Positions 1,703 through 1,805 are shown, numbered from the stretch's first letter. The stretch is 64,000 nucleotides of DNA from Patescibacteria group bacterium (GCA_004321885.1 SCQK01000004.1:1-64000); one strand, 5' to 3'. The notes: generated by a model not told the origin, from the letters alone. Program-made: numbers and translations.

Positions 1703-1805
1703 CGCTGGCTCCATACTCTTGCCCGCAGGCAAGGTGTGGAGCCATAGTGCTGTCAAACATTCGGGCTCCACAGCCCCGACTGAGTCGGGGACTATGGAGC
1801 CAGCG
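1703..1805. repeat. REP-like palindromic element, family GGCTCCA/TGGAGCC with embedded CCCCGACTNAGTCGGGG palindrome
   Basis: cgctggctccatactcttgcccgcaggcaaggtgtggagccatagtgctgtcaaacattcgggctccacagccccgactgagtcggggactatggagccagcg. Nested inverted repeats. The same family recurs at 4229, 7685, 9930, 10789, 26312, 36364, 36456 and 41585. Confidence 0.8.

Follow-up and report, generated by a model that had tools for sequence, protein, structure and literature searches.

Palindromic repeats in a Patescibacteria genome are probably REP doublets (REPINs) of the kind mobilised by RAYT transposases

The 64,000 nt stretch analysed here (SCQK01000004.1:1-64000 of assembly GCA_004321885.1, in the following called the window) belongs to a genome of the Patescibacteria (Candidate Phyla Radiation, CPR) placed near Magasanikbacteria. 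Close to its beginning, 4-5 nt past the stop codon of a LamG gene (1811-3889, minus strand), lies a palindromic element whose sequence from 1703 to 1805 runs CGCTGGCTCCATACT-CTTGCCCGCAGGCAAG-GTGTGGAGCC-ATAGTGCTGTCAAACATTCG-GGCTCCACAG-CCCCGACTGAGTCGGGG-ACTATGGAGCCAGCG. It is one copy of a family that an earlier note on this DNA had called REP-like (repetitive extragenic palindromic). That identity was right and can be specified further: the units carry the hallmarks of REP sequences, and in related Patescibacteria they flank genes for a REP-associated tyrosine transposase (RAYT). We consider it very likely that these short palindromes are inverted doublets of REP sequences (REPINs), which are mobile but non-autonomous and of the kind mobilised by RAYT, an HUH/Y1 transposase related to IS200/IS605.

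The heptamer GGCTCCA/TGGAGCC occurred 50 times on the two strands of the window, compared to 6.8 ± 2.7 expected occurrences, and none of 100 shuffled sequences reached this number. The sequence CCCCGACTNAGTCGGGG, with up to two mismatches allowed, was found ten times (0.01 expected). The inventory was the same whether obtained by repeat search, by regular-expression census, or with an nhmmer profile of 150 distinct units. By the profile search the window has exactly nine sites, seven doublets and two singlets, which together make 16 REP units; full copies are 83-105 nt long. The coordinates, the sizes, and the figure of about ten copies given in the earlier note were therefore correct. The sites, and the one gene that holds a doublet, are as follows.

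1702-1806, plus strand: REP doublet of 105 nt; left unit 1707-1743 with inner hairpin CTTGCCCGCAGGCAAG, right unit 1764-1801 with inner hairpin CCCCGACTGAGTCGGGG.
4228-4316, plus strand: REP doublet of 89 nt; left unit without inner hairpin, right unit with inner hairpin TCCGCCTTGGGCGGA.
7684-7788, plus strand: REP doublet of 105 nt, between tRNA-Arg(CCG) (7514-7587, plus strand) and a LamG gene (7791-9989, minus strand).
9932-9967, plus strand: REP singlet; unit 9939-9961 plus spacer-side and outer flanks, within the 5' end of the LamG open reading frame (ORF) 7791-9989 (minus strand).
10791-10826, plus strand: REP singlet in a 99%-identical duplicate of 96 nt, about 75-110 nt upstream of the likely start of a DUF3800 gene (ATG 10718).
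26309-26391, plus strand: REP doublet of 83 nt, between the convergent genes rplS (25958-26302, plus strand) and uvrA (26417-29341, minus strand).
36363-36445, minus strand: REP doublet of 83 nt, reversed (unit with the long hairpin first), first of a tandem pair, 4 nt past the stop of the RNase J gene (34544-36358, plus strand).
36456-36538, minus strand: REP doublet, second of the tandem pair, with a slightly decayed distal unit (GGGGTC in place of GGAGCC); the stop of the Ldh/Mdh gene (36554-37474, minus strand) follows 15 nt further on.
41584-41673, plus strand: REP doublet of 88-90 nt, in frame in a GT4 gene; left unit 41589-41622 decayed, right unit 41633-41668 intact.
41019-42212, plus strand: gene for a GT4-family glycosyltransferase of 397 amino acids that hosts this doublet; both Rossmann-type domains intact, residues 179-219 a disordered loop holding the element.

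Relatives of the family were collected by two scans. One genome per GTDB species was searched with a right-unit pattern, which gave 16 loci, and JGI metagenomes were searched with a two-unit pattern, which gave 56 loci. The matches to named genomes were almost all from CPR bacteria (Patescibacteria, Peregrinibacteria, Falkowbacteria, Altimarinota). A contig binned as 'Nitrospirae' carried LamG genes with 80-85% identity to those of the window and is therefore a relative. A match in Dehalococcoidia (L013) looked like chance and was dismissed, and a scan of viral contigs gave one weak match and no sign of phages carrying the family. The loci contained 79 doublets and 26 singlets, numbers that are partly biased by the search pattern. 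By regular-expression parsing, 51 full copies followed the order (T)CGCT-GGCTCCATAG-hairpin 1-CTGTGGAGCC-spacer (A..TGC...GCA.T..)-GGCTCCACAG-hairpin 2-ACTATGGAGCC-AGCG(A).

The REP unit is an imperfect hairpin that reads 5'-YGCT, then GGCTCCA-Y-AG, a variable inner hairpin, and (A)CT-R-TGGAGCC. At position 8 of the stem a C·A mismatch (T·G from the other strand) is conserved, together with a bulged A, and DNA folding of the units gave a continuous stem carrying both. The mismatch was kept in 181 of 201 units, a frequency that is partly ascertained in the loci by the scan pattern. At the foot of the hairpin the tetranucleotide YGCT is conserved (G in 67/71, C in 53/71, T in 64/71), and (C)ATAG sits inside the stem. 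A mismatched imperfect hairpin and a conserved tetranucleotide at its foot are hallmarks of REP sequences; the units show the former, have a conserved tetranucleotide that is neither GTAG nor CGTC, and occur mostly as inverted doublets.

Full copies in the window have the left-unit sequence GGCTCCATA(G/C)...(C/G)TGTGGAGCC and the right-unit sequence GGCTCCACAG...ACTATGGAGCC. The left unit alone shows a T·G pair at stem position 8, the right unit alone shows the C·A mismatch, and in every window doublet the nhmmer profile scored the left unit best on the minus strand and the right unit best on the plus strand. Left and right units are one unit in inverted orientation; a doublet consists of a left unit, a spacer of 12-45 nt, and an inverted right unit. 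The central palindrome that had been ascribed to the elements in general, CCCCGACT.AGTCGGGG, was present as inner hairpin in five of the seven window doublets, and the remaining two have TCCGCCTTGGGCGGA or CCCGCCTTTGGCGGG.

Owing to the inversion, the left unit's 5' arm and the right unit's 3' arm are perfect complements, and complementarity also exists between the two inner arms. For this reason the minimum free energy folds are long four-way structures or long hairpins. RNA folding, proposed in the earlier note, predicted energies of -54 to -68 kcal/mol, which is far more stable than shuffled sequences on both strands (z of -6.5 to -9). In an alignment of 55 sequences the inner stem of hairpin 1 covaried (CG 24 / GC 24 and GC 25 / CG 21), and every measure of covariation was above all 500 shuffles and all slid controls. 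Long-range pairing held in 93-96% of cells. The covariation fits both folds, as columns 15/34 favour the local hairpins and columns 13/120 and 36/86 favour long-range pairing. According to these models two folds are open to a doublet, a pair of hairpins or a single long four-way structure.

The doublets at 1702 and 7684 were identical at 103 of 105 positions, although their upstream flanks are unrelated. The 105 nt at the 3' ends of the LamG genes beside these two copies were clearly more diverged, with 74% and 92% identity to a common reference copy. Near-identical elements between unrelated or more diverged flanks point to recent copying or homogenisation and not to passive co-duplication.

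All ORFs of the loci were clustered, and a single protein emerged as a recurrent neighbour. It has about 181 amino acids (gene of about 540 nt) and was present in at least seven loci. The protein matched Pfam Y1_Tnp with 28.4 bits (cut-off 23) and the NCBIfam equivalog NF047646, REP-associated tyrosine transposase, with 95 bits (cut-off 80). Membership in IS200/IS605 proper was rejected, because the RAYT model was passed while the NCBIfam model transpos_IS200 gave just 20.4 bits at a cut-off of 55. The sequences of the CPR RAYT proteins contain an HUH motif (NHLHLI) and a C-terminal YIxNNP tyrosine motif. The only PDB match was to TnpA-REP of Escherichia coli (4ER8) and was marginal (E 0.13). 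In four distinct loci (L025, L034/L054, L061, L070) the RAYT gene was flanked on both sides by elements at distances of 8-90 nt, and two more loci had an element on one side.

Since these RAYT loci had been found via the repeat, we also made the reciprocal test, for which four new loci were picked by protein homology alone. The protein search gave 295 RAYT homologues, mostly from Patescibacteria and named 'transposase' or 'REP element-mobilizing transposase RayT'. The loci chosen (L079/L080, L081, L082) were two contigs of Magasanikbacteria CG1_02_41_34, one of Parcubacteria, and one of Doudnabacteria. All four had a left unit, GCTGGCTCCATAG...CTGTGGAGCC, 30-110 nt upstream of the RAYT gene and a right unit, GGCTCCACAG...ACTATGGAGCCAGC, 6-70 nt downstream of it. 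In the window doublets two such ends are connected by a short spacer, the conserved edges of which match the inner flanks of the REP-RAYT-REP ends. As the RAYT gene lies between left and right unit in all four loci, the doublets of the window look like transposase-less derivatives, i.e., REPINs.

In related Patescibacteria a complete element thus consists of a left unit, the RAYT gene of about 540 nt, and a right unit, and the window doublets would be what remains without the transposase gene. By analogy with IS200/IS605 and with E. coli TnpA-REP (PMC3479197), RAYT would bind the mismatched hairpin in single-stranded DNA, and the foot tetranucleotide, here YGCT, would position the cleavage. 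The enzyme may copy or move the doublet as a unit, as judged from the REPINs described in PMC3116915. Most copies lie no more than 25 nt from a gene's 3' end, and transcription presumably turns them into stable 3' hairpins. In one case a copy would have landed in frame in the flexible inter-domain linker of the GT4 protein and been tolerated as a disordered loop; this insertion would be older than the split from a lineage with a 65%-identical GT4 protein and inherited ever since.

This last copy was analysed at the level of gene, protein, and orthologue. The GT4 ORF is open throughout and encodes ...LNCKLAPQPAFGGIMEPA... between the domains Glyco_transf_4 (residues 87-174) and Glycos_transf_1 (residues 220-376). 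The element itself codes for approximately residues 190-218 (..AGSIIPPTGVELNCKLAPQPAFGGIMEPA..). An independent Logan assembly of SRR8426592 reproduced 10.4 kb including the GT4 insert exactly. The in-frame insertion in the linker, as claimed in the earlier note, was thereby substantiated: the ORF is open, both domains are present, and the independent assembly is identical. The AlphaFold2 model of the protein had a mean pLDDT of 85.7 with confident Rossmann-type domains, and it was exactly residues 179-219 that scored below 50 and were without secondary structure.

The comparison with orthologues, also proposed earlier, showed that among 30 aligned GT4 homologues the same insert was present only in the closest one (P0002, 65% identity), which stems from a different sample (SRR22388194). 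The DNA of this orthologue (L002) harbors a complete doublet at the same 3' junction (...ATGGAGCCAGC(G/C)AAT...). The two copies differ by paired changes in the outer stem (CATAA/TTATG versus CATAG/CTATG, and GGCTGG/CCAGCC versus CGCTGG/CCAGCG), and in the right unit a C-G pair of the inner hairpin is replaced by T-A; the paired changes overall are G-C to A-T, C-G to G-C, and C-G to T-A. Outside the element the proportion of nonsynonymous differences (pN 0.21) was lower than that of synonymous differences (pS 0.61), indicating purifying selection on GT4. Inside the element pS was just 0.34, which suggests conservation at the DNA level beyond the need of the protein, or homogenisation by other copies. 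Judged from the two sequences, the element would predate the split from the lineage with the 65%-identical GT4, and the data are compatible with vertical persistence. A small extra palindrome, CCCGCCACAGGGCGGG at 41552-41567, lies within 13 added codons (CHPDPPQGGEGSLFT) just upstream of the GT4 doublet and is absent from the L002 orthologue.

Other Patescibacteria GT4 orthologues (L076 3001-4332, L077 3001-4254) have unrelated nested palindromes at the same inter-domain linker. One of these palindromes is about 165 nt long (GTCATTCC.../...GGAATGAC) and encodes VIPNP..SFPQQRES..GFPLAAGMT, and the linker of L077 is occupied by a palindrome of the CCTCCCCCTT-NNN-AAGGGGGAGG type. With unrelated palindromes recurring there, the inter-domain loop of GT4 seems to be a permissive landing site that has taken up such inserts repeatedly.

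GT4 is not the only gene with an in-frame copy. Of the 110 element sites (loci and window together), 15 were spanned by an ORF that extended 70 codons or more to either side, before spurious cases were discarded; window ORF 3946-4536 and ORFs of L027/L042 were dismissed as chance or spurious. Approximately 8-10% of the sampled sites are in frame within genes. Besides GT4, hosts supported by Pfam are a MiaB-like methylthiotransferase, an ELP3-like radical-SAM enzyme, the NAD-dependent DNA ligase LigA, and two Mur ligases. The element splits the adenylation domain of LigA into two stretches, and one of the Mur ligases carries a doublet plus a singlet. The peptides RWLHSP..VEP, GST..LWSQR, KRLHSP..GTMEPA, and AGSIV recur among those encoded by the elements. 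The analogy to Rickettsia palindromic elements (RPEs) drawn in the earlier note holds at the level of behaviour, given the in-frame GT4 copy in a disordered loop, the orthologue that shares it, and the other in-frame genes; membership in any RPE family is not implied.

Six of the nine window sites are clearly extragenic and lie near ORF 3' ends, the extragenic copies being 2-25 nt away from them. The other three comprise the in-frame copy in GT4, a copy in what may be an N-terminal coding region, and a copy in a 5' leader. The doublets had been described as following each LamG gene. This applies to 1702 and 7684, which directly follow LamG stops at 2-5 nt (2 nt for 7684 and LamG 7791-9989), but 4228 sits between tRNA-Arg(GCG) (4058-4131, plus strand) and a Bro-N gene (4358-5227, minus strand). 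Copies reported between convergent genes (26312 and the tandem pair 36364/36456) were indeed located there, between rplS and uvrA and between RNase J and Ldh/Mdh, and the pair forms a 93-nt tandem repeat with 95% identity.

The two half-copies noticed near 9930 and 10789 proved to be the singlets 9932-9967 and 10791-10826. Both are within a segment of 96 nt that is duplicated at 99% identity (9894-9989 and 10753-10848) and lies at the 5' ends of the LamG and DUF3800 genes. If ATG 9989 is used as start of LamG 7791-9989, the singlet at 9932 is in frame in a signal-peptide-like N-terminal region and encodes ..NRWLHAVRGAT... An alternative start is a second ATG just inside the spacer, which is preceded by GGAG from the REP arm. 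The claim that a copy donates a start codon was not supported. The first ATG of ORF 10158-10814 is in the singlet, but the true start is likely ATG 10718, 96 nt downstream. A DUF3800 paralogue at 749-1324 starts with MEKLYCYVDESG, and the matching MQKYYCYVDETG of gene 10158-10718 begins at ATG 10718; choosing the longest ORF had thus added a spurious upstream extension.

Several readings other than REPINs were weighed against these data. The elements could mainly be functional structured RNAs (bidirectional terminators, 3' stabilisers, or a conserved small RNA) that are selected and spread by duplication, with RAYT being incidental. The position of the extragenic copies next to ORF 3' ends, mostly between convergent genes, would agree with this, as would the very stable predicted folds, the covariation of the inner stems across phyla, and the recurrence of the inner hairpin CCCGACUUAGUCGGG in RNase P RNA. 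However, no Rfam family matched the elements, neither in the whole window at gathering score nor in 1680-1830 at E up to 10, where just spurious hairpins of miRNA precursors appeared. Read along one strand, a doublet has T·G as the mismatch of one unit and C·A as that of the other, so that neither strand gives an RNA with all positions paired. Structured RNA also does not account for in-frame copies in at least seven different protein genes and in different reading frames, for RAYT genes that were chosen by protein and sit between left and right units in four loci of three genomes, or for near-identical copies with unrelated flanks. We therefore consider a mainly RNA-based explanation unlikely, although a secondary RNA role may exist on top of mobility. 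The elements might also be classical miniature inverted-repeat transposable elements (MITEs), i.e., deletion derivatives of an insertion sequence with DDE transposase that moves by cut-and-paste and leaves target-site duplications. The family is like MITEs in that its members are small, exist in multiple copies, and end in inverted repeats, (Y)GCTGGCTCCATA...TATGGAGCCAGC(R). The flank profile of 71 doublets contained no direct target-site duplication, though; beyond the ends only a weak palindromic pattern (TT...AA) continues. What the ends recurrently enclose is a single gene, that of the Y1/HUH RAYT and not one for a DDE transposase, and the repeated module is a single hairpin unit with a conserved mismatch, which makes the MITE origin very improbable.

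Repeats are known to break assemblies, and a 1.1-kb Logan contig from the same sample stops beside element 1702. Chimeric joins could hence have produced both the repeats and the GT4 insertion as artefacts, with the real GT4 gene uninterrupted or broken. We regard this as close to negligible: the independent assembly of SRR8426592 matched across the GT4 insert, the orthologue from SRR22388194 has the same element at the same junction, and the family occurs in more than 70 contigs from many projects. A tRNA-like nature of the elements was rejected as well, as ARAGORN gave just four ordinary tRNAs in the window, and a CRISPR-like one was rejected on account of the irregular spacing of the repeats.

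Some points speak against the REPIN interpretation and were weighed with the others. Neither a transposition event nor an empty site was observed, and the identity of the copies could stem from gene conversion. The window has no RAYT gene by tblastn with the CPR RAYTs, so that RAYT is linked to the family through other genomes. As foot tetranucleotide the family has YGCT, whereas published REP superfamilies have GTAG or CGTC, and the inner hairpins differ between the two units, so that a doublet is not a simple perfect inverted duplication. The scan patterns required CATA/CACA arms, so that the arrangement as doublets and the frequency of the mismatch were in part selected for in the loci; all seven window doublets and the four protein-chosen RAYT loci are free of this effect. 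Finally, any role of the elements at the RNA level, as terminator or stabiliser, is a candidate role.

With these reservations, the family resembles the REPIN/RAYT systems of Pseudomonas and Enterobacteria, for which REPINs and their tandem clusters were defined (Bertels & Rainey 2011, PMC3116915). Both comprise short imperfect palindromes, mostly inverted doublets with a spacer, a predicted long hairpin, and compensatory changes. Both also include near-identical tandem doublets, a Y1/HUH RAYT flanked by repeats, and occupied sites that are long-lived and vertically inherited (as the GT4 site would be here). Apart from the CPR host, the family differs in its longer unit (23-57 nt), with a nested, lineage-variable inner hairpin that is not the same in the two units of a doublet, in the position of RAYT, which is often between two single units rather than full doublets, and in its share of in-frame sites. 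In E. coli, the stem mismatch and the foot tetranucleotide are needed in the TnpA-REP system (Messing et al. 2012, PMC3479197, PDB 4ER8). The CPR proteins share the HUH and YIxNNP motifs with this enzyme and the CPR units share an obligatory stem mismatch and a conserved 5' tetranucleotide with the REP/BIME elements of E. coli, but the REP sequences are unrelated and the similarity to 4ER8 is marginal, as stated above.

The REP survey by Di Nocera et al. 2013 (PMC3733652) describes single REPs and dimers in opposite orientation that are preferentially found no further than 20 bp from the 3' end of an ORF, be it convergent or unidirectional, RAYT genes with flanking REPs ('REPtrons'), and intragenic dimers that encode 20-30 amino acids, including those in DNA ligase and repair genes. 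According to the same survey, 'intragenic' copies at the 5' end of genes often reflect mis-annotated starts, i.e., mis-called N-termini. All this has counterparts in the CPR family. Different from the superfamilies of that survey are the foot YGCT with CATAG just inside the stem, compared to GTAG or CGTC, and the 7-bp outer stem GGCTCCA/TGGAGCC that is conserved over several CPR lineages; no CPR genomes appear in the text of the survey that was searched. RPEs (Ogata et al. 2000, as cited in PMC3733652) likewise occur in frame in functional genes of a reduced genome, where they encode surface loops of about 20-50 amino acids, and also in non-coding DNA. RPEs are without a dedicated transposase, in contrast to the CPR elements with their RAYT partner in related genomes, and the likeness is one of behaviour only. 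The survey equates RPE-4 and RPE-6 with CGTC REPs, which lack RAYT. With IS200/IS605 the family has in common a Y1 HUH transposase between subterminal imperfect hairpins, the lack of obvious target duplications, and a single-strand mechanism that would follow by analogy; unlike IS200/IS605, and apart from the model scores, the CPR ends also exist as many transposase-less doublets. In the literature searched, no paper linked RAYT or REPIN with Patescibacteria/CPR. The principle of intragenic REPs and REP-flanked RAYT genes is already published, and the family differs in host lineage, in the YGCT foot, in the conserved GGCTCCA outer stem, and in the nested lineage-variable hairpins.

Further features of the window were recorded in addition to the elements. 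A local duplication of 186 nt with 91% identity (4058-4243 and 7514-7699) contains tRNA-Arg(GCG)/tRNA-Arg(CCG) with the spacer that follows and reaches into the first bases of a REP doublet. Homologues or fragments of the Bro-N protein encoded beside doublet 4228 were present in several metagenome loci (L022 6634-7470, L034 223-630, L054 3566-3973, L072 153-614), close to elements and beside RAYT, and the homologous ORF fragment of L034/L054 runs through a doublet. Three large LamG/Laminin_G_3 paralogues form an array at 1811-9989 with many internal repeats of 105-279 nt, and contig L007 shares them at 70-89% nucleotide identity. A second palindrome family, CCTCCCCCTT-NNN-AAGGGGGAGG, has six copies (9867-9887, 17428-17450, 28521-28535, 34484-34506, 49518-49540, 63903-63925), of which that at 9867 is in frame in the N-terminal region of LamG 7791-9989 (PPLNKGG). 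An AT-rich repeat of about 105 nt (AATGTCAAATTTCCAATCAA...TTGACATTGG...) has four intergenic copies (13469-13580, 22048-22152, 31152-31257, 31989-32094) and could represent a further family of small repeats or else a shared promoter region. In addition to the DUF3800 genes at 749-1324 and 10158-10718, a DUF3800-like ORF is present at 61336-61878 (minus strand) beside an Rfam match to DUF3800-II RNA (61251-61314, plus strand, 67 bits, gathering score 43.2). ARAGORN assigned the anticodon UAU to a tRNA-Ile at 23838-23911 (plus strand). A tRNA-Ile(UAU) is uncommon in bacteria, where AUA is usually decoded by a lysidine-modified CAU tRNA.

A hairpin of 15-17 nt, CCC(C)GAC-TNA-GTCGGG(G), had ten copies in the window (0.01 expected). 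It is the inner hairpin of five REP units and also forms three peripheral helices of RNase P RNA (P3, tip of P12, and the P17 region by the Rfam alignment). The RNase P RNA is encoded at 37950-38408 (minus strand), with the hairpins at 38060-38076, 38189-38207, and 38373-38389. The same hairpin stands alone at 20775-20793 after gene 20826-22070, and at 25935-25959 across the first ATG of rplS. A broader reading would be that a single REPIN-RAYT lineage spanning the phylum is more than selfish DNA and a routine source of new sequence for essential molecules, with doublets that were fixed in frame again and again as linkers or loops of housekeeping enzymes (GT4, LigA, Mur ligases, radical-SAM enzymes) and with a small inner hairpin module, CCCGACUNAGUCGGG in this genome, that was copied into the three peripheral helices of RNase P RNA. 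We put this forward as speculative and rather doubtful. If it were true, REP-derived modules would shape both proteins and ribozymes in the reduced genomes of Patescibacteria.

For the REPIN interpretation itself, the analysis gives a name to a recurrent repeat of CPR/Patescibacteria metagenomes and names its likely mobilising enzyme. The repeat fragments assemblies and inflates or distorts gene calls, leading to false N-terminal extensions and odd low-complexity loops (RWLHSP...VEP, GST...LWSQR, KRLHSP..GTMEPA). REP/REPIN-RAYT systems, studied almost only in Proteobacteria, would also be present in the genomes of ultra-small episymbionts. The elements are tolerated in essential genes, in parallel to Rickettsia, and the candidate transposase makes the origin of in-frame palindromes experimentally testable.

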